64,000 nt of DNA from Gammaproteobacteria bacterium (GCA_022340305.1 JAJDOF010000069.1:26277-90276), one strand, 5' to 3'. Counted from the stretch's first letter, positions 1 to 58,010 are shown. Notes: generated from the sequence alone by a model not told the origin. Program-made: numbers and translations.

Positions 1-274
1 GCGCGGTTGCGAGCGCAGTCCGCCAGTTGGAGCGGTACTCATTATTAAGGTGGCGCAAGGTCTGCTCGAGCAGCGCCTCCTTGCTGTGGAAATGAAAAAC
101 AACGTTACCCTGTGAAATTCCAGCGCGCTCGGCGATGCGCGCCAGCGTGGTCTGCGACAAGCCAAGCCTGTCGATGCAATCCATGGTCGCCTCGATTAAC
201 TGGTGCTTGCGAAACTCGCTCTGATGCTTGCGATTGCGGCTCGCGAAATTCTTTGTAGTCACCTGAATGGACAC
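1..274 (-). CDS. TetR/AcrR-family transcriptional regulator, N-terminal HTH part (C-terminus lies beyond the window start)
   Basis: Minus-strand translation V(S)IQVTTKNFASRNRKHQSEFRKHQLIEATMDCIDRLGLSQTTLARIAERAGISQGNVVFHFHSKEALLEQTL shows the TetR helix-turn-helix signature. Possible GTG starts at 274 or 262, with AGGAA upstream. Not in the ORF track because it runs off the edge. Confidence 0.7.
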   Translation of the reverse strand, partial: MSIQVTTKNFASRNRKHQSEFRKHQLIEATMDCIDRLGLSQTTLARIAERAGISQGNVVFHFHSKEALLEQTLRHLNNEYRSNWRTALATA

Positions 275-430
275 GCTATTCCTGTTTCCGTCGGTCGGCG
301 GATACTATTAAATACTGAGCATATAGTCAATAGAAAGCCCTATATCATTGAAATACATTGCAAAAAAGGTAACAATAAATATAATAGCCAGACCTTTTAG
401 AAGTCTATGCCCTTATTCAGGAGAGTCAGC

Positions 431-1889: not shown

Positions 1890-3104
1890 ATGAAAGTTGT
1901 ACCAGCAGAAAAAGTGTTTCGTGATCCGGCTGCCCGCCGCGGCTTGCCGGCCTGGACATATAACAATGCGGAATTGACGCAGCTCGAAATGGAAGAGGTG
2001 TTTTTGCGCAACTGGCTGTTCGTCGCGCACGTGTCCGACCTTCCGCGGGCGGGCGATTATAAATGCTTCGACTTCGCCAACGAACGCGCCGTGGTGGTGC
2101 GTGATCAGCAAAAACAGATTCGAGCTTTCCATAACGTCTGCCGTCACCGCGCATCGCGCGTGGTCGCCGATGATAAAGGCCACTGTGGTAATTCGTTTAT
2201 CTGTCCATTCCATGGCTGGTCCTACAATCTGGACGGCTCGCTGAAAAATATTCCCAAGGCCAGTTCGTTTCCGGATATCGATAAATCGCAATTCGGACTC
2301 CAGCCGCTCGATTGCGATGTCTGGCAGGGTATGATCTTCATCCGTTTCGGTGGTGAAGGCCCGTCGATAGCCGAACAGTTTGCCGATGCGGCGGCGGAAA
2401 TCGGCCTGTATCGTATCGAAGAGATGGAGCCACTCGACGATCCATACCAGTATAAATTCAACCTCGACTGGAAGGCGGTGCTCGACATCGACAACGAGGG
2501 TTACCACGTACCCATCGGCCATCCCGAGTTGTTCGACCTGGTTGGCGCAAGCTATACCGACCAGCCGTTGGCGGGAGGGCTGACACGCGCCTGTGGCAGT
2601 TTCAGGGAGCGCAAGCTCAAGCTAGAGCGCAACCGCGATTACGTAGAGGCATTACCCGATAAAAGTTATCTGCCCGAGTCGCACCAGCACCTGTGGATTT
2701 ACTGGGGCATGTTCCCCGGTTTCGTGCTGACGCTGTTTCCCGACCAGATCGAAATTTACCAGATCTATCCGACTGGCTACCAGAAAAGCGTGATGGCTGG
2801 CGTTACCTATGCCCTGCCAGACAAGCGCGCCAGTATGCAACGCGCACGCGCATTGAACCGCGACATCAACATGGACGTCGGTGACGAAGACATCAACCTG
2901 ATTCGCTGGGCGGCCGAGGGCATGCGTTCCAGTGCATTCGACGGAGTGCTGCTGTCAGACCTGGAGCTAGGTGTCGCTGCGTTTCAAAACAGGCTGCGCG
3001 AGTTGCTGCCGGTAGCCAGCCTCGACGAAGTGCCGGAAGAGGGCAGCCTGAAAGATACCAACGAGCGAATGTTGAAGATGGGAAAAGTAACCGCGGTAGG
3101 CTGA
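1890..3104 (+). CDS. Rieske [2Fe-2S] non-haem-iron oxygenase alpha subunit (GbcA/CntA/Stc2-like N-demethylase-type)
   Basis: Rieske motif CRH-x16-CPFH is present (CRHRASRVVADDKGHCGNSFICPFHGWSY). Mononuclear Fe site NEGYHVPIGHPE. 404 aa with a 4-nt gap to the next gene. Confidence 0.85.
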   Translation: MKVVPAEKVFRDPAARRGLPAWTYNNAELTQLEMEEVFLRNWLFVAHVSDLPRAGDYKCFDFANERAVVVRDQQKQIRAFHNVCRHRASRVVADDKGHCGNSFICPFHGWSYNLDGSLKNIPKASSFPDIDKSQFGLQPLDCDVWQGMIFIRFGGEGPSIAEQFADAAAEIGLYRIEEMEPLDDPYQYKFNLDWKAVLDIDNEGYHVPIGHPELFDLVGASYTDQPLAGGLTRACGSFRERKLKLERNRDYVEALPDKSYLPESHQHLWIYWGMFPGFVLTLFPDQIEIYQIYPTGYQKSVMAGVTYALPDKRASMQRARALNRDINMDVGDEDINLIRWAAEGMRSSAFDGVLLSDLELGVAAFQNRLRELLPVASLDEVPEEGSLKDTNERMLKMGKVTAVG

Positions 3105-3107
3105 TTC

Positions 3108-5147
3108 ATGCCGCGAGACTCGCGCTACGATCCGCTGTTCGAGCCCATTCAGCTGGGCCCCGTTACTGCGCCCAACCGTTTTTACCAGGTACCGCATTGC
3201 AGCGGTATGGGCTACCAGCGTCCGCAAATGATGGCGGCAATGCGTGGTGTCAAGGCCGAAGGTGGCTGGGGCGTCGTGTGCACCGAATATTGTTCGATAC
3301 ACGCAAGCTCTGACGACTCTCCCTATCAGAGCGCCAGCCTGCGCGATGCGGACGACATAAGCAACCTGCGCCTGATGACTGACGCGGTACATGCCGAAGG
3401 TGCGCTGGCGGGTGTCGAACTATGGTATGGCGGGTTTACTACCCCGAATCTTTACAGTCGCGAAGTCTCCATGGATGTAGCCAGTCTGGCGAACGAGTCG
3501 ACACAGGGTGTGCCGGTACAAAGCCAGGCGATGACGCTGGACGATATACAGGCATTTCGGCAGATGCATCGCGATGCAGCAAAGCGGGCGCTCGATGCGG
3601 GTTTTGATATCGTTTATGTTTATGGCAATCATGGCTATCTGCTGCACAACTTCCTTAATCCCTATTTCAATCAGCGTGACGATGAATACGGCGGCGTAGC
3701 CGAAAATCGGGTACGACTGCTGCGGGAAGTGATCGAGGACGTTAGCGAAATTGTCTCTGGGCGTGCTGCAGTTGCAGTACGCTATTCGATCCCGCCGCAA
3801 TTCGATATCGATCCCCAGGGATTGATCGAATGTTTTGGATACCTTGCTGAACTGCCCGATCTGTGGGATATCACGGTTAACGATTATCATCTGGAGATGG
3901 GTAGCTCGCGTTTCATCAAGGAAGCGGCAAACCAGGAAGCAATCGCAGGCCTCAGGGCTTTGACCGGCAAACCAATAGTCAGTGTCGGCCGCTTTACCTC
4001 ACCCGATACCATGTTGAGCCAGATCGTCAGTGGCACGCAGGACATGATCGGTGCCGCGCGGCCCTCTATCGCAGATCCATTTCTTCCGCGCAAAATCGAG
4101 CAGGGTCGGCTTGAGGATATCCGCGAATGCATTGGTTGCAACGTTTGCTATGCCCATAATTCACTGGGTGTACCGATTCGCTGCACGCAGAATCCGACCA
4201 TGGGCGAAGAATGGCGACGTGGCTGGCATCCGGAGCGCACTGAGGCACGTCATGCTGATCAGTCGGTGCTGGTGGTGGGTTCCGGACCGGCAGGACTGGA
4301 AGCTGCCTGTGCGCTGGGTCAGCGCGGCTATCGGGTAATCCTGGCCGAGGCCGAGCAGGAACTCGGTGGACGCATCAATCGGGAGTCGCGCCTGCCGGGA
4401 CTGGCCGAATACGCGCGAGTTCGCGACTGGCGCCTGGGGCAATTGCAACGCATGGTCAATGTCGACATCTACCCCGATAACCGGCTCGATGTCGACGCGA
4501 TCGCCGAGCTTGCATGCGAGCACGTCATAATTGCGACCGGGGCCAGCTGGCGCAGCGATGGGGTCGGACGTTGGCGTAATTCGGCCTTCGCTGGTTGTGA
4601 CAGTGACCAGGTGATTGGTGTCGAGCAAATTTTGCGCGGGAAATTACCCGAGGGCAGGGTGGTGATCTATGACGACGATCACTATTATCTCGGCAGTGCA
4701 ATCGCCTTGCTCGCCAGTGCCAGTGGCTGCCAGGTTGCATTGGTGTCGCCTTCAGATTCCCTGGCTGAATGGAGTCATAATACCGAGGAGCATCGTCCCG
4801 TAATGCGGGCATTGATCGAAGCCGGTGTGGAGTTTGTGACTGCCAAAGGGCTGGTTGGTTTCGACCTGGGAAAGGTTCAACTCGAATGCGTTTACAGTGG
4901 TCAGTCGTCGCAACTGGCGGCCGATCAATTGATTCCGATCAGCTCTCGTGTCGCCGATGACGCGTTGTGGATTGCACTCGATCAGCATCGTAGCGAGCTT
5001 CTGCAACACGGGCTTGTGTCGCTTCAGCGTATTGGTGATTGTCGCGCGCCCGGTATTATTGCCGCAGCGGTGTATGCGGGGCATAAGGCCGCGCGTGAGT
5101 TGGGTAGTCGGCAGTCTGAAGTCAAACGTGATCGCGTATTAACATAA
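3108..5147 (+). CDS. Trimethylamine/dimethylamine/histamine-dehydrogenase-family Fe-S flavoprotein (FMN + 4Fe-4S + ADP-binding domain), paralog 1
   Basis: The N-terminus MPRDSRYDPLFEPIQLGPVTAPNRFYQVPHC resembles the TMADH N-terminus, including the Cys used for 6-S-cysteinyl-FMN. A 4Fe-4S motif CIGCNVC...C and a Rossmann motif VVGSGPAGLEAA are present. 679 aa. Confidence 0.85.
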   Translation: MPRDSRYDPLFEPIQLGPVTAPNRFYQVPHCSGMGYQRPQMMAAMRGVKAEGGWGVVCTEYCSIHASSDDSPYQSASLRDADDISNLRLMTDAVHAEGALAGVELWYGGFTTPNLYSREVSMDVASLANESTQGVPVQSQAMTLDDIQAFRQMHRDAAKRALDAGFDIVYVYGNHGYLLHNFLNPYFNQRDDEYGGVAENRVRLLREVIEDVSEIVSGRAAVAVRYSIPPQFDIDPQGLIECFGYLAELPDLWDITVNDYHLEMGSSRFIKEAANQEAIAGLRALTGKPIVSVGRFTSPDTMLSQIVSGTQDMIGAARPSIADPFLPRKIEQGRLEDIRECIGCNVCYAHNSLGVPIRCTQNPTMGEEWRRGWHPERTEARHADQSVLVVGSGPAGLEAACALGQRGYRVILAEAEQELGGRINRESRLPGLAEYARVRDWRLGQLQRMVNVDIYPDNRLDVDAIAELACEHVIIATGASWRSDGVGRWRNSAFAGCDSDQVIGVEQILRGKLPEGRVVIYDDDHYYLGSAIALLASASGCQVALVSPSDSLAEWSHNTEEHRPVMRALIEAGVEFVTAKGLVGFDLGKVQLECVYSGQSSQLAADQLIPISSRVADDALWIALDQHRSELLQHGLVSLQRIGDCRAPGIIAAAVYAGHKAARELGSRQSEVKRDRVLT

Positions 5148-5172
5148 AAAGATTAAGGTATAAGAGTAAGTA

Positions 5173-7227
5173 ATGGCCAGAGATCCAAAGTACGACATCC
5201 TCTTCGAGCCGGTGCAAATCGGCCCGGTCACTGCCCCTAACCGGTTTTTTCAGGTCCCTCACTGCAATTCGCTGGGCCATGGTCGGCCTCGCGCCGAGGC
5301 GGCTAACCGCGCGATCAAGGCCGAGGGAGGCTGGGGTGTCATTTGTACGCAAGAGGTTGAGATTCATCCCAGTTCCGAGGCATCACCCTTTATCGAGGGG
5401 CGTCTCTGGGATGACCGCGACATACCGCAACACCGCCTGATGACCGATGCGGTGCATGAGTATGGTGCGCTTGCGGGCATCGAATTGTGTTACCCCGCGA
5501 TCCACGCAGTCAACTTGTACAGCCGTATCGCACCCATGGCGCCGAGCGCCGGGGTTGCGCACGGCAGTTACCCGACCCATGCGCGCGCGATGAGCAAGCG
5601 AGACATCGCTGACCTGCGTCGTTGGCACGTCGACGCGGCCAGGCGCTCCCGGCAGGCGGGATACGATATCGTCTATCTTTATGCCGGGCACGATATGAGC
5701 CTGTTACAACACTTTTTCAAGAAGCAATATAATCGGCGTAGCGATGAGTACGGCGGTAGCCTTGAAAACAGGGTCAGACTCACAAGGGAGATTATCACCG
5801 ATGTTAAAGAGGCAGTTGGTGATACCTGTGCGATTGCATTTCGCTTTGCGACCGACGAGTTGCTGGGTGCTGACGGGCTGCGATGGGAGAGTGAGGGGAG
5901 GGACATAGTCGGAATGCTCGCCGAGCTTCCGGACCTGTGGGATGTCAACATCAGTGGCTGGGGTAACGATTCTTCGACCGCACGCTTTGAACCCAATGAA
6001 GGCTACCAGGAAGAATACACCGCATTCGTCAAGACCCTGACCAGCAAGCCGGTGGTGGGTGTCGGGCGTTTTACCTCGGCCGATACCATGGTATCTCAAA
6101 TCAAGCGAGGTGTGCTCGACCTGATCGGCGCGGCGCGGCCATCGATAGCTGATCCCTTCCTGCCGCGCAAGATCGATGAAGGCCGTATCGAAGACATACG
6201 CGAATGCATTGGCTGCAACATCTGCGTCGCCCAGGACATGATGGCGGCGCCGATTCGCTGCACGCAAAACCCGACCCAGGGGGAAGAGTGGAAGCAGGGC
6301 TGGCACCCGGAGAAGATTGCAGCGGCGGCCAGCGACGATGCAGTGTTGGTGGTCGGCGCCGGACCTGCCGGGCTTGAGTGCGCGCTGCAACTCGCCAATC
6401 GTGGTTACCAGGTGACCCTTGCCGAGGCGTCGCAGTCCCTCGGTGGGCGAATAAATCGTGAAAGCGAGCTGCCCGGTATGTCGAGCTATACCCGGGTGCG
6501 TGACTATCGTGAATTCCAGCTCAGCCAGAAGGCTAATGTCGATATTTATCTCGAGAATCGATTGACCGCGGAGGATGTGATTGCACTGGAGATTCCACAT
6601 GTACTGGTCGCTACCGGATCGCACTGGCGTAATGACGGCTGTGGTCGCACTCATGCCTTTCCGATCGCCGGTATCGACAGTGTTCGGGCGCTGACTCCGG
6701 ACGATATTTTGGCCGGCGCAGACATCAGCGGACGAGTACTCATCTACGACGACGATCATTATTTCATGGGCAGTACCCTGGCTGAACGCTTACGCGCACA
6801 AGGGCATGAGGTTTGCCTGCTGACCCCGGAGTCGGTGGTTGCAGAATGGACAAAAAACACACTGGAGCAGTCGAAAATCCAGGCGCGCCTACTCGAGCTT
6901 GATGTCGACATCGTGACTTCGCATGCTATATGCGAAGTCCGCCCTGGCGAAGCAACAATCGCAAACGTCTACAGTGACAGGCTGCGGCGTGTGCTTGAAT
7001 TCGATACGCTGCTGATGGTCACCTCACGTGACCCTGACGATAATTTGTTCCAGTCACTTCAGGCTTATCAGGATAGCTTGCAAACACTGCGTGCAATCGG
7101 CGATTGCAATGCCCCCGGCACCGTGGCCGCGGCGGTCTATGACGGGCACTCGGCAGCGCGAGACCTGGAGTCACAACAGGATGTCTACGCACCCCTGTTC
7201 GTACGTGAAATACCAGCGCTGGATTAG
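5173..7227 (+). CDS. Trimethylamine-dehydrogenase-family Fe-S flavoprotein, paralog 2 (tandem duplicate)
   Basis: MARDPKYDILFEPVQIGPVTAPNRFFQVPHC, CIGCNICVAQ...C, VVGAGPAGLECA. 684 aa, roughly 50 % identical to the upstream paralog by eye. Confidence 0.85.
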   Translation: MARDPKYDILFEPVQIGPVTAPNRFFQVPHCNSLGHGRPRAEAANRAIKAEGGWGVICTQEVEIHPSSEASPFIEGRLWDDRDIPQHRLMTDAVHEYGALAGIELCYPAIHAVNLYSRIAPMAPSAGVAHGSYPTHARAMSKRDIADLRRWHVDAARRSRQAGYDIVYLYAGHDMSLLQHFFKKQYNRRSDEYGGSLENRVRLTREIITDVKEAVGDTCAIAFRFATDELLGADGLRWESEGRDIVGMLAELPDLWDVNISGWGNDSSTARFEPNEGYQEEYTAFVKTLTSKPVVGVGRFTSADTMVSQIKRGVLDLIGAARPSIADPFLPRKIDEGRIEDIRECIGCNICVAQDMMAAPIRCTQNPTQGEEWKQGWHPEKIAAAASDDAVLVVGAGPAGLECALQLANRGYQVTLAEASQSLGGRINRESELPGMSSYTRVRDYREFQLSQKANVDIYLENRLTAEDVIALEIPHVLVATGSHWRNDGCGRTHAFPIAGIDSVRALTPDDILAGADISGRVLIYDDDHYFMGSTLAERLRAQGHEVCLLTPESVVAEWTKNTLEQSKIQARLLELDVDIVTSHAICEVRPGEATIANVYSDRLRRVLEFDTLLMVTSRDPDDNLFQSLQAYQDSLQTLRAIGDCNAPGTVAAAVYDGHSAARDLESQQDVYAPLFVREIPALD

Positions 7228-7251: not shown

Positions 7252-8172
7252 TCAGGAACCCTTGTTGGCGCCGAGTACATAGAGCATTTCCAGCGCCAGG
7301 GTGGCGCCAGCTAGTGAGGTGATTTCGGCGTGATCATAGGCAGGCGCGACCTCGACCAGGTCCATGCCAACCAGGTTGATGCCCTGTAATCCACGGATGA
7401 TCTTGAGCGCGCGGTCCGATGTCAAACCGCCGATAACGGGGGTGCCCGTGCCGGGAGCATAGCTTGGGTCGAGGCAGTCTATGTCAAAGGTCAGGTAACA
7501 GGGCGTGTCACCAACGCGCTGATGGATGCGCTCGACAATCGCTTCGGCGCTCAGGTCGTTGGCGACGGCGGCGCTGATCACCTCGAACTCGTGCCGGCTC
7601 TCGGTGTATTCGGTGCGTATCCCGATCTGAATGCTCTTGTCCGCGTCGATCAGGCCTTCGCGCGGTGCGTGATAAAACATGCTGCCATGGTTGTAAACGG
7701 CATCTTCCTCGTTATAGGTGTCGGTGTGTGCGTCGAAGTGAATCATCGCCAGTTTGCCGAAATGCGCGTGGTGTGCACGCAGCAATGGCAGTGTAACGAA
7801 GTGGTCGCCACCCAGGCTGAGGGTGGTTTTGCCGGCGGCGAAAAGCCTGGCGTATTGTTCCGCAACGCTTTCAAAAAAGGCCTCGTGGTTGCCGGTGGGG
7901 ACCTCGATATCGCCGTAATCGGCTACACGGATGCGTTCAAACACGTTGAAATCCCAGGGCCAGCGCTTTTCTTCCCAGCGCAGATTGGCGCTGGCGCTGC
8001 GTATGCCATCGGGGCCGCCGCGGGTGCCCGCGCGCCCACTGGTGCCGAGGTCGTAAGGCAGGCCGATGACAAATACGTCGGCGTCGTCGGGGTTGCGGCT
8101 TAATGGTCGGCCCATAAAGCTGAAGCGGTTGGCGTAGATGGAGACACTGTCGATAAAATTGTCGTTAGTCAT
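7252..8172 (-). CDS. Agmatinase/arginase-family ureohydrolase (guanidino-acid or guanidino-amine hydrolase, GbuA/SpeB-like)
   Basis: Mn-binding motifs of the ureohydrolase fold are present: GGDHFVTLPLL, HFDAHTDTY, DIDCLDP. The start was moved to ATG 8172 (MTNDNFIDS...), which overlaps the upstream stop as TAATG. The track's longer start at 8247 overlaps the preceding gene by 76 nt. Confidence 0.8.
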   Translation of the reverse strand: MTNDNFIDSVSIYANRFSFMGRPLSRNPDDADVFVIGLPYDLGTSGRAGTRGGPDGIRSASANLRWEEKRWPWDFNVFERIRVADYGDIEVPTGNHEAFFESVAEQYARLFAAGKTTLSLGGDHFVTLPLLRAHHAHFGKLAMIHFDAHTDTYNEEDAVYNHGSMFYHAPREGLIDADKSIQIGIRTEYTESRHEFEVISAAVANDLSAEAIVERIHQRVGDTPCYLTFDIDCLDPSYAPGTGTPVIGGLTSDRALKIIRGLQGINLVGMDLVEVAPAYDHAEITSLAGATLALEMLYVLGANKGS

Positions 8173-9614
8173 TAAAGATACCAGTCGTATTCGCGCGCGT
8201 TGATGTGATTTTCGAAAGCGGTCGTTTCTGCCGCGCGATGGCGACAATATAACTCGATGAATTCGCGGCCCATGATGTCACTCAGTTCCACGCTGTCGAG
8301 CGTGCGCGCAAGCGCCGTGCGCATGTCCAGTGGCAGGCTTTCGTCACGCCCGACGACGGCCTGATCGGTGGCCTCACCCGGATCAAGCTTGTTCTGGATG
8401 CCGTGCAGCATTCCGGCCAGGGTGACGGCCATCGCCAGGTAAGGATTCGCATCCGCACCGGGAACACGATTTTCCACGCGCCATGCGCCCTCTTTGGCGT
8501 GGGGAATGCGAAACGCCACGGTTCGATTTTCATTTCCCCAGGTCAGGCTTACCGGCGCACAGCTGGTGCCACCCCGGTAGCGCCGGTAGGAATTGATATT
8601 GGGAGCCCAGAATGACATCGCCGCGGGCATGGTCGCAAGCAGGCCACCGATGGCGTGGTACAGCCGCGCATGCCCTTTGCGGGGACCTGCAAAAATATTC
8701 TTGCCCTGGTCGTCGACCACGCTGATGTGCATGTGCAGTCCATTGCCGGCGAATGCGAGCAACGGCTTGGCGATGAAACTGGCGCCCATGCCGTGCTTCT
8801 TGGCGATTTCGACGACGATGCGCTTGAACAGGCAGGTTTCATCTGCGGCTCTAAGCACATCGGCATGGTGATTGAAATTGATCTCGAACTGGCCCGGCCC
8901 GAGTTCCGCTGAAATCGCGCCGGTGTCGATATTTTGCATTTCGCAGGCGTGAATAATGTCGTCGATGACTGTCTCAAAATCACCGATGCGCGCGCTCGAT
9001 AACACCGTTGCGGTATCCTTGCGGCCGGTTTTGGGATTGCGCACGATTTGTAACAGGTCATCCGCATCGCGCTGGGCCGCGAACAGGTAGAACTCGAGCT
9101 CGAAGGCGACCATGGGGCGCCAGTGCCTGGCTGCGTAGGCATCCACTACTTTCTGTAATACATAGCGCGGTTCGAACCAGCTTGGTTGGTCGCCATCACA
9201 GGTTGTCGCGACCACCTGGGCGCGGGCCTCGCGGCCCCAGTCGTTCAGACAAAGGCTGCCGGGTACCAGGTAGAAATGTGCATCCGGATCACCATCGTCG
9301 ATTCCATAGTAAAGGCCATCGAGCGGTTCGCCGAGCGTACTGAGCGTAAACATGCTCGCCGGCATCGCGAGTCCTTCTGCCGCGAAGCTTGCCAGTTTGT
9401 CGATGGGGTAGCGCTTGCCGAAGTAATGCCCACAGATATCCGTGACTAAAACCTCGAATTGCGTGAGATCCGGATAGGCTTTCAGAAACTGGTTGACTTC
9501 GCGTTTGAGACGCTGGCTTTGCTGAGCTTTCATAAACTTCGGGCTACTCTGGTCATCGATAGTTTTGTGATCACGGGCGCAGGCATTTTCGAGGCCGTTG
9601 ACCTGGGTTGTCAA
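8172..9614 (-). CDS. Glutamine-synthetase-family gamma-glutamyl-amine ligase (PuuA/PauA-like)
   Basis: 480-aa GS-like catalytic domain (…FELEFYLF…, …GLHMHISV…, NPYLAMAV). Translationally coupled to the ureohydrolase. Confidence 0.8.
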   Translation of the reverse strand: MTTQVNGLENACARDHKTIDDQSSPKFMKAQQSQRLKREVNQFLKAYPDLTQFEVLVTDICGHYFGKRYPIDKLASFAAEGLAMPASMFTLSTLGEPLDGLYYGIDDGDPDAHFYLVPGSLCLNDWGREARAQVVATTCDGDQPSWFEPRYVLQKVVDAYAARHWRPMVAFELEFYLFAAQRDADDLLQIVRNPKTGRKDTATVLSSARIGDFETVIDDIIHACEMQNIDTGAISAELGPGQFEINFNHHADVLRAADETCLFKRIVVEIAKKHGMGASFIAKPLLAFAGNGLHMHISVVDDQGKNIFAGPRKGHARLYHAIGGLLATMPAAMSFWAPNINSYRRYRGGTSCAPVSLTWGNENRTVAFRIPHAKEGAWRVENRVPGADANPYLAMAVTLAGMLHGIQNKLDPGEATDQAVVGRDESLPLDMRTALARTLDSVELSDIMGREFIELYCRHRAAETTAFENHINAREYDWYL

Positions 9615-9661: not shown

Positions 9662-10372
9662 TCAAGCGACGCCTCTGAAATAATTGTCAATGCCCTCGAC
9701 ACTGTTTATCGAGGCGATGCCATCACGAATATCGGCTTCAATGGCACGCCGCAGACCGAACAGGTTACGCTGGCGCAAAGCCTCCAGCGCTTCGACGTGG
9801 CGGTCGACCAGGTAAACTTTTTCCAGTTTGCTAATGGCAATGCGAGAAAACGGCCCGAGCTGCAACCACAGGCTTTCGATCAGGGGTACCGATATCTGGA
9901 AAGGATTCACCTGGTATAAACAGCGATGGAAGGCCTGGTTGTGCAGGCTGATGTGATCCACGTCATCGGCTTCGATGGCCTGATCAATTGCGCCATCGAT
10001 TACCTCCAGAACCTCAATATCTGCTTCTTTTATATAGGGTAATGCACCCTCCGCGGCATGGGTTTCGAGAAGAATTCGCAAGTCGCAGAGTTCTCTGAAC
10101 TTCTCTGGAGTCATCGACGGCACGATCACCCTGCGATTGTTCTTGACCTCGACCGCACCCTCGCAGGCAAGCCGGTGCAGCGCCTCGCGCACTGGCATGG
10201 GACTGACATCGAGAATTTGTGCAAGCCCGCGTATGGTCAGCGCAATGCCCGGCGCGATGCGCCCGCACAACAGGTTGTTGCGCAGCAACTGGTAGACCCA
10301 TTGATGCGTTTTCAGGTCGTCCGACTTTTCGATCATTAGCAGTTTTATGGGTTGTGCGTCGGCAGAGGACAT
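9662..10372 (-). CDS. GntR-family (FadR/FCD subfamily) transcriptional regulator
   Basis: N-terminal winged HTH (IAPGIALTIRGLAQILDVSPMPVREALHRLACEGAV) plus an FCD-type C-terminal domain. Divergent from the amidotransferase gene. Confidence 0.8.
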   Translation of the reverse strand: MSSADAQPIKLLMIEKSDDLKTHQWVYQLLRNNLLCGRIAPGIALTIRGLAQILDVSPMPVREALHRLACEGAVEVKNNRRVIVPSMTPEKFRELCDLRILLETHAAEGALPYIKEADIEVLEVIDGAIDQAIEADDVDHISLHNQAFHRCLYQVNPFQISVPLIESLWLQLGPFSRIAISKLEKVYLVDRHVEALEALRQRNLFGLRRAIEADIRDGIASINSVEGIDNYFRGVA

Positions 10373-10562
10373 AGATTGGTTTTGAGCAGCGGTCAGGCGA
10401 TGATTTAATCACAAATGCGCAATTTTCACCAATGGCAAGGTTGCTAAGGCCGAGGATATGTCTATAAAATATGATCACATTACATGCGATCTGGAAGTCG
10501 GTCGCGATTCCTCAAAACTACGCGGCGATTGTCTCGCAATGCGAGCAGATCAGGGTGTGCAG
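10373..10562. promoter_or_regulatory. Divergent promoter/operator region between the GntR regulator and the amidotransferase gene
   Basis: 190-bp AT-rich spacer with the near-palindromic segment ATGTCTATAAAATATGATCACAT, of the kind GntR-family operators show. Confidence 0.3.
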
Positions 10563-11318
10563 ATGAAAATCGGAATTCTCGAAACCGGATTGGTACGCGA
10601 AGAACTGGCGGATCGACACGATCCCTATCCCGTGATGTTCGAGCGACTGCTGGGACTTGCGGAGCGCAAGCTTGAGTTTGCGACCTTTAGTGTGCTGCGC
10701 GGGGAGATGCCGGAGTCGATAGACGATTGTGACGGATGGTTGATTACCGGATCGCGATACGGTGTCTATGAAAAGCTCGACTGGATGCTGGTGTTACAGG
10801 ACTTTATCCGCGAGCTGGCAGCTGCCGGGCGGCCGTTGATCGGAGTCTGCTTTGGTCACCAGATTATCGCCGAGGCGTTGGGTGGGAAGGTCGTCAAGTC
10901 GGAGCTTGGCTGGAAGGTCGGGGTGCAACGCTATGATCTCGAGCGTCGCTATGACTGGATGGGCGAATCACCATCATCGGTCGCGATGCATGCCTATCAT
11001 CAGGATCAGATCGTGGAATGCCCGCCAGAGGCCGAAGTTTTTTTGAGTTCTGCCGATTGTCCGCTTGCTGGATTGAGTTATGGTGATTCGATTATCAGTG
11101 TGCAGGCGCACCCGGAAATCGAGGAATCCTATGAACGTGATCTGCTGGAATTGTTCGCCGGCCGCTCGCTTCCGCTGGATCTGGCGCAGCAGGGGATTGC
11201 ATCCCTGGATGCCGGCATACCGGTTGATACCCGGCTAGTTGCGAACTGGTTTGTCGAGTTTTTTCTGACTCGCGAAATGACGGCGCAAGCGGCGCCCCTG
11301 GAGCAGTCACAGGCCTGA
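10563..11318 (+). CDS. Class-I glutamine amidotransferase-like hydrolase (PauD/IpuF-type gamma-glutamyl-amide hydrolase candidate)
   Basis: Start MKIGILETG… with catalytic GVCFGHQ (Cys) and a His/Glu triad region. Start placed at ATG 10563 rather than the track's 10458. Confidence 0.7.
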   Translation: MKIGILETGLVREELADRHDPYPVMFERLLGLAERKLEFATFSVLRGEMPESIDDCDGWLITGSRYGVYEKLDWMLVLQDFIRELAAAGRPLIGVCFGHQIIAEALGGKVVKSELGWKVGVQRYDLERRYDWMGESPSSVAMHAYHQDQIVECPPEAEVFLSSADCPLAGLSYGDSIISVQAHPEIEESYERDLLELFAGRSLPLDLAQQGIASLDAGIPVDTRLVANWFVEFFLTREMTAQAAPLEQSQA

Positions 11319-26090: not shown

Positions 26091-26804
26091 TTATGACTTG
26101 GGTTTGAATTCAATCGATTTTACCCGCGGCGACAGATTGATCTCGTCGATGACGATATCGGGGCTCGATTGCAGTACCTGAAACACCAACTCGGCAATAT
26201 CGTCGGTGGAGATCGCGTTTTCGGGCGCGGCGCCCGGGGCGAATGTCTGCCCGTCGAAAAACGGGCTACGCACCATGCCCGGGTTTACCAGGCTGACCTG
26301 AATGCCATCGCTGGCACAATCCTCGCGCAGCGCAAGACAGAAGCCGCGCAGGCCAAACTTGGCAGCACAGTAGAGGGCACCCTTCCTGCCCGCCTGTAAT
26401 GCGGATTCGGAACCAATGACAACGATGCGGCCCTGTCTGTGACGGCGCATATGCGGCAACAGGCTACGGCAGATCACCATGGCGCAGAGCAGATTGACGC
26501 GAATAGCCGCCTCGATTTGCGCCACCGAAAATTGTTCTATCGAGCCGAAGTTTCCCTGCCCAGCGGCGTGGATAAAGCAGTCGAATCGCGTTTGTTTGAG
26601 GATGCTGCCGAGGCGCTTCTCAAGTTCGCCGAGATCATCCAGATCGATGATCTGCGCGTGGAAATTATCGTGTTGCAAGGCGTCGACCTGGCCACGTCGG
26701 CTGATGCCGGTAACCGCATAGCCCTGCTCCAGCAAGCGACGTGAAATGGCCAGCCCGATGCCGGAACTGGCACCGGTCACCAGGGCATGCCTGCATTCAT
26801 CCAT
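26091..26804 (-). CDS. Short-chain dehydrogenase/reductase (SDR)
   Basis: TGASSGIGLA Rossmann motif, 237 aa. Last gene of a four-gene overlapping operon. Confidence 0.8.
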   Translation of the reverse strand: MDECRHALVTGASSGIGLAISRRLLEQGYAVTGISRRGQVDALQHDNFHAQIIDLDDLGELEKRLGSILKQTRFDCFIHAAGQGNFGSIEQFSVAQIEAAIRVNLLCAMVICRSLLPHMRRHRQGRIVVIGSESALQAGRKGALYCAAKFGLRGFCLALREDCASDGIQVSLVNPGMVRSPFFDGQTFAPGAAPENAISTDDIAELVFQVLQSSPDIVIDEINLSPRVKSIEFKPKS

Positions 26805-27797
26805 GCCAGTTACAGGGGTGATAGCAATGCCTGGGGACGTGTTGCAACACCGCGGTTTCGCAGAATTCGATCATTTCGCGCTCACGTTCGACTGGATAGC
26901 TGACGATACCATTATCCAGCTCCATGGGTTGCGCAAACAGGGGTTCGTCCGGATATAGTCGCGAAACCTTGCGAAAATGATCACGCGTCAGGCGAAAGCT
27001 ACCCAGGCTGACCGAGTGCATGGCTGTGGCATCGAGCTCGGCAAAAATCTGTTCCAGCAACGCCTTGAACTCTACCTGGTAATTCACGTGATAAACGATC
27101 GGGTCGAGGCGCAGTCCGACCTTCCAGCCAGCCTCCATGAGTCGGCGCATGGCGTCGATGCGTTTGGCTATCGACGGCACGCCGTTTTCCAGTTGGGCAT
27201 GGCTCACAGGATCGCTGAAACTGAAAGCAGTGACCACTCGATCCTGTGGTTTCAGTTTCAACATGCCGCGCACCTGGGTACTCTTGGTGCGCAATTCCAT
27301 CCAGGCATTATCGATGCTGGCCACCAGGGGGATGAAAAACTCGGTAAACCGGGTCATCGGATCGTTGGCGAGACTGTCGCAATCGTAGCCCGAGTAAAAC
27401 CATACCGGTTGTTGCGGATGACTGGCGGCAACCCGCCGCATCTCGTCACCGAAATCCTCGAAATTGACAAACAGCAGTTGGTGGGCCGACTGGTACATGC
27501 CCTGCAGAAAACAGTAGCGGCAATCGTACAGGCAATTGAGCATGTGTGAGAAATAGTAGTTGTGATCTCCACCGAGGCCATAACCCTCTGGGGCCGCCAG
27601 CATATGGCCCTTATTCTTGTGCGCGATAATGATCGCGGGATTCTTTTTCTGCAGGCGAAAATTTTGTGATCGCGGGTTGAACACTTCGCCGTAGTGCTCG
27701 ATTTCAATCACCGGTAACTTGTTCAATCTTTGCAGTAACTGCCGCGTACGCGGATGTTGGCGTATCGACGATTCGACATAGACCCGGCTTGTCATGG
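26797..27797 (-). CDS. Radical-SAM enzyme of the spore-photoproduct-lyase (SPL) / 'DNA repair photolyase' family
   Basis: CLYDCRYC matches the CxxxCxxC radical-SAM motif. Start moved to ATG 27797 (MTSRVYVES…). The track's 27924 start would overlap the upstream gene by 132 nt. Confidence 0.65.
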
Positions 27798-28604
27798 TCG
27801 AAGTCCTTCGCTGTCCCGGTAGCTCAGTTGCTCCAGGTGTTTGATTATTGCGCGTGGCGAATGCTCTTCGAATTGTTGCATCAGGGTTACGGCGTCGAAA
27901 TCGCGATTCATCAGGTAACGCCACAATACTCGCAGTCGGTTTTGCTGGGTTTGACTGAAATGCGCCATGGACGTCAGTTGTTGCCAGTATTCGAGCCCTG
28001 GTGAGCGCGCCGCGACTTCGTCGTTCAAAGCCATCAGGGAGCTTGCCTGACGTTCGATACTGTCGATGTGCTGGTGTACCAGGTCACTGACGCGTTGCCG
28101 GTCCCTGCCGATTTTTTCGCGCTGGTTGTCGCTTACAATTTTCAGCGACTTGACTAGCTCGGCACTGCTGAAGCGCAGGGTGGCGTACATGAAACCACTG
28201 GCTTCCATATCGAACAGGTATTCCTCGCTGTAGTCATCGCTGGGAAGGCTTAGTGTCATGCAGGCGCTGCCATCCAGTTCAACTGCGCTTGCCGGTGCCG
28301 GGTAGTAGCGATGCCCATCGTCGGCATCGATCACCTGGTGAAGTGAAAATATGCTGCCGATATCATGCTGCGCTGCGCCTGCTATACCCAGGTTGATCCA
28401 GGCGATCGATGCCTCGTCGCCGTAGCGTGCCGCTATCCAGGCACAGGCTGCGCTACTGGCGATCTTGCCGGTACCGCTGATGATACAGGCCATACCGTTG
28501 CCACGATAATGGTCGAAGGCGGTGTCATCATGTGATTTCTTGAGGCGATAAAAGTCGATAATCGGCTTGGCTTCGCAGTGCAGGGCGGATACCCAGATCA
28601 GCAT
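27792..28604 (-). CDS. PNP/UDP/MTA-nucleosidase-family (phosphorylase family 1) protein with a C-terminal extension of about 110 aa
   Basis: The N-terminal about 160 aa align with MTA/SAH nucleosidase Pfs (ISGTGKIASSAACAWIAARYG…INLGIAGAA). 270 aa. Confidence 0.6.
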   Translation of the reverse strand: MLIWVSALHCEAKPIIDFYRLKKSHDDTAFDHYRGNGMACIISGTGKIASSAACAWIAARYGDEASIAWINLGIAGAAQHDIGSIFSLHQVIDADDGHRYYPAPASAVELDGSACMTLSLPSDDYSEEYLFDMEASGFMYATLRFSSAELVKSLKIVSDNQREKIGRDRQRVSDLVHQHIDSIERQASSLMALNDEVAARSPGLEYWQQLTSMAHFSQTQQNRLRVLWRYLMNRDFDAVTLMQQFEEHSPRAIIKHLEQLSYRDSEGLRP

Positions 28605-29443
28605 GTGACCCGCCTGCTGTTATCCTGCCAGCGCCGGTACAGGGGTTCGAATTCGGCGATGAGCGAGTGATTCTGATGTTTGCGCGCACCCTTGATGAGT
28701 ATTTCGAGTTTACCCAGCAAGGTGCTGCGGGCGGCTGCAAAATGGTCTGCCTGCAGCGTCGTGGTGTCGAGCAGGCGATGCAAAGCACGTACGCGGAAAC
28801 GGTCCATCGCCGGGTATTGCCGAGACAACTGGTCCGCGTGTCCACCATACTTGGTGATCAGGGGGCGATCGATGTAATGCACGGGAAAGCGATGGCACAG
28901 GCGCAGCCACAGATCGTAGTCTTCGCAGGCGGGCAGGCTCTCGTCAAACAGGCCGAGACCCTGCAGGGCTGATTTCCTTATTACCGTGGCCGATGGTGAG
29001 ATCGCGCATAGCGGCAGGCATTGCACAAATATCCAGCCGCCGCTCTTACGATGTTTTTGCATCGGGTTGACCCGCACCCCGCGCCGGACCCAGATTTCGT
29101 CAGAGTGATAGAGGATGTATTCGGGATGCTCTGCAGCCGCTTCACGCACCGCCTGAATTTTGTCCGGCAGCCAGCAATCGTCTGAGTCAAGCAATGCGAT
29201 CCATTCGTGTTGAGCGGCCTCGATACCTTTATTGCGCGCGGCGCTGACCCCGCCATTGGGCTGATGAATCACCGAGACTTGAGGAAACTGGCGAGCCACC
29301 ATCGCGGCGCTGTCATCGGTGGAACCATCATCGACCAGGATGACTTCATCGACCGCCGAGCCCTGGGCGAACACTGACTGCAGCGCTCGCTGCAGGGTGT
29401 GCGCGCGATTGTAAGTCGGAATGACGACAGATATGCGCATCAT
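28598..29443 (-). CDS. Family-2 glycosyltransferase
   Basis: MMRISVVIPTYNRAHTLQRALQSVFAQ… DDGSTDDS… DSDD. GT-A fold with a DxD motif. Confidence 0.8.
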   Translation of the reverse strand: MMRISVVIPTYNRAHTLQRALQSVFAQGSAVDEVILVDDGSTDDSAAMVARQFPQVSVIHQPNGGVSAARNKGIEAAQHEWIALLDSDDCWLPDKIQAVREAAAEHPEYILYHSDEIWVRRGVRVNPMQKHRKSGGWIFVQCLPLCAISPSATVIRKSALQGLGLFDESLPACEDYDLWLRLCHRFPVHYIDRPLITKYGGHADQLSRQYPAMDRFRVRALHRLLDTTTLQADHFAAARSTLLGKLEILIKGARKHQNHSLIAEFEPLYRRWQDNSRRVTC

Positions 29444-35466: not shown

Positions 35467-35493
35467 TCAGGCGCGGTACCAGGGGGACACTAA

Positions 35494-36663: not shown

Positions 36664-36679
36664 TGTACGGGATAAACAT

Positions 36680-45022: not shown

Positions 45023-45436
45023 GTGAATACTGAGTCTCAGGCAGCGCAAGGGGTGGAACCGACGATCAACCTGAACGTCAAGGTGATGGTCATTGATGAC
45101 AGCAAGACGATTCGACGCAGTGCGGAAACCCTGCTGAAAAAAGCAGGTTGCGAAGTCGTTACGGCGATAGACGGTTTCGAGGCGCTGGCAAAAATTACCG
45201 AACACAAGCCGGATATTATCTTTGTCGACATCATGATGCCGCGTCTCGATGGTTACCAGACCTGTGCGCTGATCAAGAATAACCAGGCCTTCAAAGGCAC
45301 GCCGGTCATCATGCTTTCGAGCAAGGACAGTATTTTCGATCGCGCCCGTGGGCGCATCGTTGGCTCGGAGAAATATCTGACCAAGCCATTTTCAAAAGAA
45401 GATCTAATCAATGCGATTACCGCACATGTCGGCTAA
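45023..45436 (+). CDS. pilG: Twitching-motility response regulator PilG (CheY-like)
   Basis: KVMVIDDSKTIRR…DIIFVDIMMPRLDGYQTCALIKNN matches PilG nearly residue for residue. GTG start. Confidence 0.9.
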   Translation: MNTESQAAQGVEPTINLNVKVMVIDDSKTIRRSAETLLKKAGCEVVTAIDGFEALAKITEHKPDIIFVDIMMPRLDGYQTCALIKNNQAFKGTPVIMLSSKDSIFDRARGRIVGSEKYLTKPFSKEDLINAITAHVG

Positions 45437-45472
45437 TCAGCGACAAGCATCTGGGCAAGAGAGGAGATTCTG

Positions 45473-45856: not shown

Positions 45857-45869
45857 CGCGGATCCTGCA

Positions 45870-46403: not shown

Positions 46404-46437
46404 AAATGGTTAGCAAATTATCGAGGAAGCGGTAGCC

Positions 46438-48585: not shown

Positions 48586-48593
48586 GCAGTCGA

Positions 48594-55330: not shown

Positions 55331-55342
55331 CGAGGTGTGGAG

Positions 55343-57820: not shown

Positions 57821-58010
57821 TTGAATTCTTACCAGGTGGTTAATTTAGTTACTATAGCCAAGTATAGTTTAAGAACACCGGTTTAATATTTTTCGGGACA
57901 ATACCACCGAACAAAAGCCGGTTTCAGCGAGCGCACTGGGACAGCTTTACCGGTAAATATGTTTTCAACTCCGCCCCGATTTTTATTTTTATTAATGCGA
58001 AGGAACGTTG

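Follow-up and report, generated by a model that had tools for sequence, protein, structure and literature searches.

Three adjoining genes of an uncultured marine gammaproteobacterium, located inside a polyamine-uptake/breakdown locus in the 64-kb stretch of DNA analysed here (the window), encode a Rieske oxygenase and two TMADH-family paralogs, A and B. With moderate confidence, we read them as three separate C-N-oxidising enzymes acting in series or in parallel, with the reductase of the oxygenase unlinked, and not as an oxygenase followed by its missing electron donor. From the observed gene content, sequence family, pocket differences and conservation patterns, we infer likely substrates, step order, electron partners and operon structure. 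The initial annotation of this DNA is partly supported, its observation being confirmed and its interpretation mostly unsupported.

Gene order and the Rieske oxygenase

The Rieske non-heme-iron oxygenase alpha subunit, group-V-like, of the amine-oxidising type (1890-3104, + strand; 404 aa), is followed on the same strand by A, a predicted A-type TMADH/HADH-family FMN/[4Fe-4S] amine dehydrogenase of accessory standing (3108-5147; 679 aa), and by B, a predicted B-type histamine-dehydrogenase-like FMN/[4Fe-4S] amine dehydrogenase (5173-7227; 684 aa). This order and the ORF coordinates agree exactly with the initial annotation. The spacing of 25 nt given there between A and B is correct; the other, given as 4 nt, is a coordinate difference and the gap itself is 3 nt (3105-3107). 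A class-III (omega-) aminotransferase gene (431-1837, +; Pfam Aminotran_3, E 1e-82) lies directly 5' of the Rieske gene here and in nearly all close relatives. Its listed ORF runs from 407, and the gene call in the homologous locus L081 corresponds to a start at 431; the protein scores 674 bits against NCBIfam PRK07036 (cutoff 618). The four genes share one orientation, with spacing of 52, 3 and 25 nt, and probably constitute a single operon of which the aminotransferase gene would be the first. Divergent from it, the 5' part of a BetI-type TetR regulator gene together with the shared intergenic region occupies 1-406 (- strand) and runs off the window start. Translation of this segment gives the TetR helix-turn-helix, containing TLARIAERAGISQGNVVFHF, and the full gene in L081 (218 aa) as well as the L016 ortholog match TetR_N and TetR_C_6. 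A promoter-like site is present at 358-385 (+), the number of such sites being near chance.

The Rieske protein matches Pfam Rieske and Ring_hydroxyl_A and carries the cluster ligands C84-x-H86 and C105-x2-H108. The codons of its invariant active-site motif DIDNEGYHVPIGH (2484-2522, +) specify a bridging Glu, two Fe-ligand His and an Asp at the substrate-cation position; D199-I-D-N-E203-G-Y-H206-x4-H211 is unchanged across 70 Rieske homologs. H206 and H211 are invariant, as is D334, the candidate carboxylate of the 2-His-1-carboxylate site. Glu203 corresponds in the alignment to the bridging Glu of Stc2 ('...NNRECYH...'), where HcaE has Asp. In group V enzymes this glutamate (E205 of CntA) replaces the Asp of classical ring-hydroxylating oxygenases (PMC7948474). 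At the E-2 position, two residues ahead of the bridging Glu, the Rieske protein has neither the Tyr/Phe of group Va nor the Asn of Vb. Asp201, also invariant in the 70 homologs, aligns there with the Asn of Stc2 and Tyr203 of CntA, and thus occupies the position of the cation-pi Tyr of carnitine oxygenase and of the Asn of betaine demethylase.

No gene for a beta subunit is present, and the group V proteins CntA (carnitine), GbcA/BmoA (glycine betaine) and Stc2 (stachydrine) are likewise alpha-only, with Rieske and Ring_hydroxyl_A domains and E-x2-H-x4-H including the bridging Glu. The likeness to CntA, GbcA and Stc2 is limited to approximately residues 15-220, with the Asp at the E-2 position as a further difference. 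PDB matches including Stc2 and CntA cover only about residues 13-230 (E ~1e-26 to 1e-28), and the best NCBIfam model, GbcA, gives 140 bits, its cutoff being 670. The AF2 model of the Rieske protein was of too low quality for pocket inspection. The protein would act as an alpha-only amine monooxygenase, hydroxylating with O2 the carbon beside a nitrogen and so causing oxidative N-dealkylation. On a cationic polyamine-type substrate, which may be N-methylated, the outcome may be N-demethylation or C-N cleavage.

Cofactor residues and substrate pockets of A and B

Both paralogs match Pfam Oxidored_FMN and Pyr_redox_2 (and OYE-like_second_a-b), and their best PDB match is histamine dehydrogenase (HADH) 3k30, with E 3e-207 for A and 2.5e-227 for B. 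Further matches were 6de6, HisD 6l6j and TMADH 1djn, aligned end to end at E 1e-154 to 1e-227 (A with 1djn, 2e-154; B with 6de6, 1e-225). Over their full length, A and B are 41-53 % identical to HADH (Nocardioides simplex, 3K30; Rhizobium sp., 6DE6), TMADH (1DJN) and HisD/6-hydroxypseudooxynicotine dehydrogenase (6L6J). Their mutual identity of 50.3 % bears out the earlier estimate of about 50 %.

VPHC occurs in both, its Cys31 aligning with Cys30 of TMADH and Cys35 of HADH, and this FMN-linking Cys is present in all 21 A-clade sequences and in 26 of the 27 of the B clade. The Fe-S motif CxxCxxC...C, CIGCNVCYAHNSLGVPIRC in A (341-359) and CIGCNICVAQDMMAAPIRC in B (345-363), is invariant in both clades, and each paralog has one GxGxxG (GSGPAG at 391 in A, GAGPAG at 395 in B). 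The Cys for cysteinyl-FMN, the CxxCxxC...C motif and the ADP-binding fold named in the initial annotation are therefore all present at the sequence level, and covalent flavinylation, Fe-S cluster content and ADP binding are predicted for both proteins. Tyr169, His172, Asp267 and Arg222 (TMADH numbering) are all found in B, while A has Glu in place of Asp267, a conservative change that is invariant in its clade. A and B thus have in common with HADH, TMADH and HisD the FMN-linking Cys, a Tyr-His-Asp/Glu triad, Arg222, four Fe-S Cys, a single ADP-type GxGxxG and a vestigial NADPH domain.

The last feature bears on the earlier proposal that one paralog is an NAD(P)H-dependent Rieske reductase (the 'Stc4-type' idea). 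In its favour, both paralogs have a single dinucleotide-binding fold besides their flavin and Fe-S motifs, and no alternative reductase is nearby. In the alignment, however, the second-Rossmann GxGxxG and a segment of ~26 residues of the NADPH domain of E. coli FadH are absent from A and B: FadH 'IIGCGGIGFD' stands opposite 'VVI---YDDDHYYL' in A and 'VLI---YDDDHYFM' in B, the same being seen in TMADH and HADH. The NAD(P)H domain of both is hence vestigial as in TMADH/HADH, unlike that of FadH and 2-enoate reductases, and without the FadH-type NADPH GxGxxG a function as NADH reductase is unlikely. Moreover, both keep the amine-dehydrogenase pocket and catalytic residues (Cys30, Tyr169, His172, Arg222, Asp/Glu267 and the four Cys), and A is dispensable in relatives. 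The proposal is consequently highly improbable.

The substrate pockets of the two paralogs differ, and the differences are conserved within the clades (21 A-clade and 27 B-clade sequences), with eight pocket positions systematically different. The A pocket comprises Tyr60/65, Asp74, Tyr77, Tyr181, Tyr264/267, Glu267/270 and Asn at 355/358 (TMADH/HADH numbering). That of B is acidic, with Glu65, Glu79, His115, Trp267, Asp270 and Asp358 (HADH numbering). The aromatic bowl of TMADH (Tyr60/Trp264/Trp355) is incomplete in both, A having Tyr, Tyr and Asn and so retaining only Tyr60, and B having Glu, Trp and Asp. The residues proposed for the histamine site of HADH are Gln65, Ile74, Phe77, Glu79, Asn115, Tyr181, Trp267 and Asp358 (PMC10180351). 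At these eight positions B has E, A, F, E, H, M, W and D, four of them identical, including Glu79, Trp267 and Asp358, with Glu replacing Gln65 and His replacing Asn115. A has Y, D, Y, S, T, Y, Y and N (one of eight identical), and its Tyr264 and Glu267 occur in none of the solved HADH, TMADH and HisD enzymes. Judged by these residues, B is HADH-like, probably with a different amine specificity, whereas A is not HADH-like at the histamine-site positions. Such clade-conserved differences fit functional divergence and not simple redundancy.

In both paralogs, electrons would pass from the substrate through 6-S-Cys-FMN and the [4Fe-4S] cluster to an external acceptor such as ETF, as expected of TMADH/histamine-dehydrogenase-type amine dehydrogenases. 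In line with the reading as separate enzymes, Rieske homologs are found beside other amine-oxidising flavoenzymes: on plasmids of Shinella and Parasedimentitalea, the companions of the Rieske gene are an A-type TMADH-like gene, FAD oxidoreductases and a GcvT-like aminomethyltransferase. GcvT-like and aldehyde dehydrogenase genes are both missing from the window cluster, which counts against that reading. Being more TMADH-like and recurring in clusters with the GcvT-like aminomethyltransferase, A is a candidate N-methyl- or secondary/tertiary-amine dehydrogenase. The very acidic HADH-like pocket makes B a candidate diamine or agmatine-type primary-amine dehydrogenase; HADH accepts histamine, agmatine and putrescine (PMC10180351).

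Distribution of the paralogs and electron supply to the oxygenase

A and B belong to deep clades, each with alpha- and gammaproteobacterial members, and B is 52-53 % identical to the characterised histamine dehydrogenases of N. simplex and Rhizobium. Since both clades span the two classes and B is as near to HADH as to A, the split is ancient and no local recent duplication. Of the tandem duplication with divergence suggested earlier, the functional divergence accordingly fits, and a recent local event does not. Redundant isoenzymes arising from a recent tandem duplication could account for two adjacent, co-oriented genes of similar length, but this origin is scarcely credible in view of the A/B identity of only half the residues, the closer relation of B to HADH, the breadth of both clades and the eight divergent pocket positions.

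A heteromeric A/B dehydrogenase, also proposed earlier, is quite unlikely. TMADH and HADH are dimers, and A-type and B-type genes are adjacent not only here but, in reverse order, at the distant loci L049 and L052. Many close relatives, however, have B only, full-length, non-chimeric and 3 nt 3' of the Rieske gene; B is kept wherever the contig of the relative extends far enough, with one possible exception (L010). Some alphaproteobacterial relatives (L039, L047 and P. marina) carry the A-type only, and L075 the B-type only. The loss of A from many close relatives that keep B argues against an obligate heteromer, and the existence of A-only and B-only loci means that each type must function alone, though a facultative heterodimer could form where both occur.

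The lack of a cognate reductase or ferredoxin, pointed out in the initial annotation, was confirmed over a much wider region. No FNR-type reductase or ferredoxin was found in the window by Pfam searches covering nearly all ORFs of 100 aa or more, nor by a six-frame motif scan for plant-type Fer2, FNR and small Rieske ferredoxins. A reductase just outside the window had been considered a possible refutation. None was seen in the ~8 kb to its left as represented in L081, which has an identical Rieske protein and whose left extension encodes TetR, a PotF-type ABC transporter, a GS-like protein, an aminotransferase and a DAO oxidoreductase. No linked reductase or ferredoxin was found near ~80 homologous loci or on the two plasmids of cultured organisms. 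To our knowledge, every characterised group V system (CntAB, GbcAB, BmoAB, HpbBC) has an adjacent reductase. CntB, GbcB, BmoB and HpbC are such adjacent FNR-type reductases, whereas the Rieske gene here is without one. The absence of an adjacent reductase throughout this Rieske family counts against the reading as three separate enzymes, in which the Rieske centre would receive its electrons from a reductase encoded at another site in the genome.

Alternatively, the electrons could be supplied by the amine substrate: B, or A where only the A-type is present, would oxidise an amine, and its [4Fe-4S] cluster would directly reduce the Rieske cluster within a functional complex, with no NAD(P)H reductase. 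The absence of a reductase near the ~80 loci and on the plasmids would be explained, and a TMADH-like gene lies immediately 3' of the Rieske gene, often at 3 nt, in the gammaproteobacterial clade and in L039, L040, L047 and L075. That this neighbour is either A-type or B-type fits a generic and not a substrate-specific link. A physical partnership would likewise give rise to the 3-nt Rieske-TMADH adjacency that Gammaproteobacteria share with some Alphaproteobacteria, and in this respect the pattern speaks against three separate enzymes. On the other hand, no TMADH-like gene within 10 kb and no neighbouring reductase accompanies ~30 more distant Rieske homologs that carry the identical active-site motif, so lacking a linked reductase characterises the Rieske family and gives no indication in favour of the TMADH-like genes. 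L054 and L055 have as neighbour another kind of flavin amine oxidase, not TMADH-like, an Amino_oxidase protein being encoded right after the Rieske gene in L054. The [4Fe-4S] cluster of TMADH has a potential of ~+100 mV and oxygenase Rieske clusters ~-150 mV, which would make the transfer strongly uphill. We know of no precedent for a TMADH-type cluster feeding a Rieske cluster. Direct supply is therefore unlikely. Slightly less likely still is its extension, in which the dehydrogenase draws two electrons from an amine, possibly the product of the oxygenase, and delivers them by way of its [4Fe-4S] cluster to the Rieske centre, so that successive N-dealkylations of a polyamine, perhaps an N-methylated one, are redox-coupled without NAD(P)H.

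Polyamine context and related pathways

Convergent with B is the gene for an agmatinase, a SpeB-like ureohydrolase (7252-8172, -; Pfam Arginase). Its best PDB match is E. coli agmatinase (SpeB) 7lol at E 4e-111, with guanidinobutyrase 3nio far behind (E 6e-62), and it exceeds the cutoffs of the NCBIfam agmatinase models. Next to it is the gene for a glutamine-synthetase-like ligase (8172-9614, -; Pfam Gln-synt_C, E 2e-90), a candidate gamma-glutamyl-polyamine synthetase, which is conserved in relatives and falls below the cutoffs of the type III GS and gamma-glutamylputrescine synthetase NCBIfam models. Genes for a GntR/FCD-family regulator (9662-10372, -; Pfam GntR and FCD) and a class-I glutamine amidotransferase-like hydrolase (10458-11318, +; Pfam GATase), a PuuD/PauD-like candidate below the cutoff of NCBIfam PRK05665, are likewise kept in relatives. 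The substrate-binding protein of the clustered ABC transporter has its best matches in SpuE 3ttl (E 2e-87) and PotF (E ~1e-84). Aminotransferases, a DAO gene and the BetI-type TetR complete the cluster. The PotF/SpuE-type transporter, agmatinase, GS-like, GATase and aminotransferase genes and the BetI-type TetR together point to catabolism of a polyamine-type amine, possibly N-methylated; primary amines formed would be passed to the aminotransferase, the agmatinase and the gamma-glutamylation enzymes.

With the Puu/Pau/Spu polyamine routes of E. coli and Pseudomonas, the locus shares GS-like ligases, a GATase-like hydrolase, a DAO-type oxidoreductase, omega-aminotransferases, agmatinase and the PotF/SpuE-like transporter. 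We know of no Rieske oxygenase and no TMADH-family dehydrogenase in those pathways. A Rieske oxygenase of Bordetella and Ralstonia reportedly acts on a polyamine as putrescine 2-hydroxylase; it is said to show activity in E. coli without any co-expressed partner, relying on non-cognate redox proteins, and to have a biosynthetic role, not a catabolic one as proposed here. The solved HADH, TMADH and HisD enzymes serve methylamine, histamine or nicotine pathways, whereas the genes of A and B lie in a polyamine locus beside a Rieske oxygenase.

Two-stage betaine demethylation offers a parallel in logic; StcD and DgcA belong to the TMADH family. For proline betaine, a flavin demethylase has been demonstrated to act after a Rieske step (PMC3950512), and the order of a first Rieske dealkylation and then a flavin demethylase holds for Stc2 and StcD in Sinorhizobium, HpbB1C1 and HpbA in Paracoccus (PMC3950512) and GbcAB and DgcAB in Pseudomonas. 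There as in the window, transporter and regulator genes belong to the cluster. The betaine systems, however, have carboxylate betaine substrates, ProU/BCCT-type uptake and a dedicated reductase, whereas the window locus has PotF/SpuE-type uptake, polyamine-enzyme neighbours, two different TMADH-family enzymes and no linked reductase. The Rieske/TMADH-like gene module is widespread yet uncharacterised, and the locus may represent a previously unknown pathway by which N-methylated polyamines, such as long-chain ones of the diatom type, are degraded in marine sediments.

The Rieske gene trio and its polyamine context

The Rieske oxygenase gene (1890-3104, plus strand) encodes a protein of 404 aa with Pfam Rieske and Ring_hydroxyl_A domains. 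It is followed on the same strand by paralog A (3108-5147, plus strand, 679 aa) and paralog B (5173-7227, plus strand, 684 aa), each with Pfam Oxidored_FMN and Pyr_redox_2 domains. The gaps between the window ORFs are 3 nt (Rieske-A) and 25 nt (A-B). Among solved structures, both paralogs aligned end to end with histamine dehydrogenase (HADH; 3k30 and 6de6), HisD (6l6j) and trimethylamine dehydrogenase (TMADH; 1djn), the match to 3k30 having an E value of 3e-207 for A and 2.5e-227 for B. In A and B, a VPHC motif places Cys31 in line with Cys30 of TMADH, and a CxxCxxC-x11-C motif and one GxGxxG are found in each. The ORFs, families and motifs described in the initial annotation were thus confirmed by Pfam and by matches to the sequences of structures. 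Operon structure was assigned from spacing and orientation alone; the counts of promoter and terminator sites were about those of shuffled sequence. The 52 nt separating the aminotransferase and Rieske genes contain a GC-rich hairpin (CCCGCGTTAGCGGG) at 1839-1852, with a T-rich tail behind it. This might serve as a partial terminator or attenuator, but terminator-like sites are no commoner than in shuffled sequence.

The window starts inside a divergently transcribed TetR gene, and a metagenomic contig with an identical Rieske protein (L081) continues for ~8 kb further left. The genes there encode a BetI-type TetR, a PotF-type binding protein, an ABC ATPase, two permeases, a GS-like ligase, a second class-III aminotransferase and a DAO-type oxidoreductase. 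The binding protein best matches Pseudomonas SpuE (E 2e-87) and E. coli PotF (E ~1e-84). Convergent with B lies a ureohydrolase gene (7252-8172), for which the best match was E. coli agmatinase SpeB (E 4e-111), that to guanidinobutyrase being far poorer (E 6e-62). GS-like ligases, a class-I GATase-like hydrolase, the DAO oxidoreductase and two omega-aminotransferases complete the neighbourhood, with BetI-type TetR and GntR regulators. From its gene content, the locus is predicted to be one of polyamine (putrescine/spermidine/agmatine type) uptake and catabolism.

As listed, the agmatinase ORF spans 7252-8247 from a TTG start and overlaps the end of the GS-like gene. In the L081 gene call it starts at 8172, and the GS-like stop and agmatinase start codons have one base in common, pointing to translational coupling of the two minus-strand genes. 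A DDAH/amidinotransferase-like gene (Pfam DDAH_eukar/ADI) is present beyond the ABC transporter at L016 2442-3362, with homologs (cluster 14, seven loci); the window genome has none in the equivalent place (L081). This gene and the ureohydrolase had prompted us to consider a guanidino-compound pathway (guanidinobutyrase, worm phosphagens). It was rejected, since the ureohydrolase is clearly SpeB-like and the window genome lacks the DDAH-like gene.

Beyond ~16 kb the window holds unrelated housekeeping genes (tmcA-like, msrA, pilT/pilU, pyrBC, gshB, a Chp chemosensory cluster, ahcY, metK, tkt). The Chp/Pil-type cluster (45023-55330) encodes two CheY-like receivers, CheW, an MCP and a ChpA-like hybrid kinase of 2262 aa with Hpt, HATPase_c, CheW and receiver domains; three PilT/PilU-like T2SSE ATPases are encoded further upstream (34432-37843). 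A minus-strand run at 26091-29443 combines an SDR, a spore-photoproduct-lyase-like protein (SPL family), a 270-aa ORF with no Pfam match and a family-2 glycosyltransferase, which is unusual for a gammaproteobacterium. The region ~55300-58900 is low in G+C (0.47 in the 56-58 kb bin, ~0.55 elsewhere) and may be a small acquired island. ORFs 55175-55834, 56236-56613 and 57062-57820 gave no Pfam match, and a 165-aa ORF of this region has a CDP-archaeol-synthase-like (CarS-like) domain.

Divergence and distribution of the two paralogs

Very few members of the TMADH family have been characterised. A neighbour-joining (NJ) tree was built from 46 TMADH-like proteins of the loci and the four solved enzymes. 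The A-type and B-type proteins form two deep clades, each with gamma- and alphaproteobacterial members, and the HADHs and HisD group with the B clade. A and B are 50.3 % identical to one another; B shares 52-53 % and A 45-49 % identity with the two HADHs, and either shares 41-42 % with TMADH. Cys30/35, Tyr169/176, His172/179, Arg222 and the four cluster Cys are retained in both clades. At the pocket sites listed in PMC10180351 (HADH numbering), the clades differ systematically: in A and B respectively, position 65 is Tyr/Phe or Glu, 74 Asp/Glu or hydrophobic, 77 mostly Tyr or variable, 79 variable or Glu, 115 variable or His, 181 Tyr or Met/Leu, 267 Tyr or Trp, 270 Glu or Asp, and 358 Asp/Asn or Asp. 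The proposed sub-functionalisation is therefore supported in that the substrate residues are not identical, whereas a local tandem duplication is not, the split being old by both the NJ clades and the identities. A and B are probably independent enzymes, where a heteromer had also been proposed.

B resembles HADH at Glu79, Trp267 and Asp358 and has an extra acidic residue at 65. A keeps the TMADH-like Tyr60 in 'TEYCSI' but not the rest of the TMADH aromatic bowl. The HADH of N. simplex accepts histamine, agmatine and putrescine (PMC10180351). Taken with the HADH-like pocket, this substrate range makes a diamine or agmatine-type compound a reasonable candidate substrate for B.

A homolog scan with one genome per species gave 80 loci. 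Among 8000 candidates scored, 2381 homologs were obtained at E <= 1e-20, and the genome scan gave 479 stretches; the module is widespread. Among complete or nearly complete genomes, it is found in CP070646.1, Olavius Gamma 3 (scaffold DS021199.1), Shinella zoogloeoides XJ20, Parasedimentitalea marina W43 and Rhodovibrionaceae A322. The close relatives (59-82 % identity) comprise uncultured Gammaproteobacteria of marine sediments, the Gamma 3 symbiont of Olavius algarvensis and a MAG with a closed chromosome. They keep the order ABC transporter, TetR, aminotransferase, Rieske, [A], B, agmatinase, GS-like, GntR, GATase. B was found wherever the contig reaches, with one possible exception having only short ORFs in the B region (L010). 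A is missing from many relatives (eleven loci), and these B-only genomes intermix with A+B genomes on the Rieske tree, which suggests several independent losses of A. In one B-only relative (L007) the lone B-type gene begins 3 nt past the Rieske stop codon. The single gene of B-only relatives was also considered as an A/B recombinant from unequal crossing-over, which was rejected as the gene is B-like over its whole length.

Four typical gammaproteobacterial clusters (64-80 % identity, same order) occur in MAGs named Haliangium, Acidimicrobiia, Polaribacter and Urechidicola, for which contamination during binning is a likelier explanation than transfer. In another locus (L076) the aminotransferase, Rieske and A genes are each split into two or three consecutive fragments. 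These look like frameshift errors of a long-read MAG assembly and not real pseudogenes.

Distant Rieske homologs (42-51 % identity) are mostly alphaproteobacterial. An A-type gene lies directly 3' of the Rieske gene in three of their loci (L039, L040, L047) and a B-type gene in one (L075); two others (L049, L052) have both types elsewhere in the locus, in reversed order. A flavin amine oxidase is the next gene in two loci (L054, L055). For ~30 distant homologs no TMADH-like gene was found within 10 kb. A PotF-type ABC transporter adjoins many of the distant homologs.

Two cultured carriers have the cluster on plasmids, Shinella zoogloeoides p1 (L086 11956-25167) and Parasedimentitalea marina pW43C (L087 11965-25149), with Rieske orthologs of 41-42 % identity. 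Both clusters encode a PotF-type ABC transporter, an aminotransferase, FAD oxidoreductases, a GcvT-like aminomethyltransferase and a TMADH-like protein, the last typed in P. marina only, where it is A-type. The Shinella cluster also has an annotated TetR regulator, and its visible FAD oxidoreductases number two. P. marina has in addition a second, divergent Rieske paralog (29 % identity, without the DxDxE..H motif) amid ABC transporter genes. GcvT-like proteins are typically found in N-demethylating systems of the kind in which tetrahydrofolate takes up the C1 unit, and the presence of the gene hints that N-methyl groups are removed in these clusters. Both strains are possible experimental models.

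The Rieske active site and its electron supply

In the Rieske protein, C84/H86 and C105/H108 are the cluster ligands. Across 70 homologs, down to 42 % identity, the motif D199-I-D-N-E203-G-Y-H206-V-P-I-G-H211 does not vary, save for a handful of conservative or single-residue substitutions outside the ligands, among them the Asn before Glu203. By HMMER alignment Glu203 corresponds to the bridging Glu of Stc2 (3vca); HcaE has Asp there. A bridging Glu characterises the quaternary-amine oxygenases of group V (CntA, GbcA/BmoA and Stc2), and two residues before it stands the cation-pi Tyr203 in CntA (Va) or Asn in the Vb demethylases (PMC7948474). In contrast, the protein studied here has an invariant Asp at this position, which may pair with a protonated amine. 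The protein could not be placed in any characterised family (GbcA model, 140 bits against a cutoff of 670), PDB similarity is confined to the N-terminal ~220 residues, and no beta-subunit gene is present. An AlphaFold2 model of the protein, made from a shallow 32-sequence alignment at 70-89 % identity, had a mean pLDDT of 40.8 and pTM of 0.30. It was set aside as too poor for fold search or pocket analysis.

No reductase or ferredoxin was found in the 64-kb window by Pfam on essentially all ORFs of at least 100 aa, and a six-frame scan of the window yielded no plant-type ferredoxin, FNR or small Rieske-ferredoxin motif. The ~8 kb to the left, as carried by L081, has no reductase among its genes, and the right-hand flank is inside the window. 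The absence of a linked reductase thus holds over this stretch. Likewise, no reductase or ferredoxin recurs among the clustered neighbour ORFs of the 80 loci. Their recurrent unassigned clusters gave only Pfam families such as EAL/GGDEF, CobN, CobW, DAO, Aldedh, SBP, GT, cupin, TPP and MR_MLE, and motif scans of the loci gave only sporadic, implausible matches. The Shinella zoogloeoides p1 and Parasedimentitalea marina pW43C clusters have no ferredoxin/FNR motif. Unlinked redox partners are common among Rieske oxygenases, and the missing reductase with tandem paralogs, as first framed, is largely ordinary. With a linked reductase missing across the family, the question arises of where these oxygenases obtain their electrons.

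It had been suggested that one of the paralogs replaces the missing reductase. A and B were aligned with E. coli FadH (locus L085), an NADPH-using member of the superfamily. Exactly like TMADH and HADH, in which the corresponding domain is vestigial, both lack the second-Rossmann GxGxxG (FadH 'IIGCGGIGFD') and the adjacent inserted segment. The lack of this NADPH-site segment, with a single GxGxxG left in each and the amine-dehydrogenase residues intact, argues against an NAD(P)H-dependent reductase, and the NADH-dependent form of the proposal is unlikely. Electrons might instead be supplied by the substrate, the [4Fe-4S] cluster of the TMADH-like enzyme passing them straight to the Rieske centre. 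Such a transfer gains appeal from the close, conserved placement of the Rieske and TMADH-like genes and from the want of a reductase throughout the family, but many Rieske homologs with an identical active-site motif have no TMADH-like neighbour and some loci have a different flavin amine oxidase in its place. The potentials (TMADH cluster ~ +100 mV, oxygenase Rieske clusters ~ -150 mV) would also make it uphill. We regard direct transfer as a minority possibility, and reduction by an unlinked reductase is retained in the scheme below.

A putative amine-oxidation module

The aminotransferase, Rieske protein, A and B would act as amine-processing catalysts, consecutively or in parallel. Substrate would be imported by the PotF-type system. 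The Rieske monooxygenase, its centre reduced by an unlinked reductase, may carry out O2-dependent oxidative N-dealkylation (demethylation or C-N cleavage). The A-type enzyme would oxidise a secondary, tertiary or N-methyl amine and the B-type enzyme a primary amine (diamine or agmatine type), both reducing ETF or another acceptor. The resulting primary amines would pass to the aminotransferases, agmatinase and gamma-glutamylation enzymes. We lean modestly towards this mechanism as a whole, with three amine-oxidising steps and an unlinked reductase, in which we infer substrate identity and step order.

A Rieske step followed by a demethylase is also the logic of glycine betaine (GbcAB then DgcAB) and stachydrine (Stc2 then StcD) breakdown. 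For proline betaine, a Rieske step and then a TMADH-family/flavin demethylase have been established (PMC3950512). The locus goes beyond the textbook routes of gamma-glutamylation and transamination in having, in addition, an O2-dependent Rieske step and one or two dehydrogenases of the TMADH/HADH type. In the literature searched, no matching description was found of an Asp-type group-V-like Rieske protein with HADH/TMADH-type dehydrogenase(s) in a polyamine locus. Each enzyme is a new member or variant of a known family.

In marine sediments and animal-microbe symbioses, polyamines and methylated amines serve as major N and C currencies. The module is found also in the Gamma 3 symbiont of Olavius algarvensis, and on hundreds of contigs from metagenomes. 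Once identified, the substrates would establish amine-oxidising Rieske oxygenases with Asp at the cation-binding position as a new clade, and would define two new specificity classes in the TMADH family. The main value of the locus lies in an uncharacterised, environmentally common catabolic module and in how a Rieske family with no reductase of its own gets reduced.
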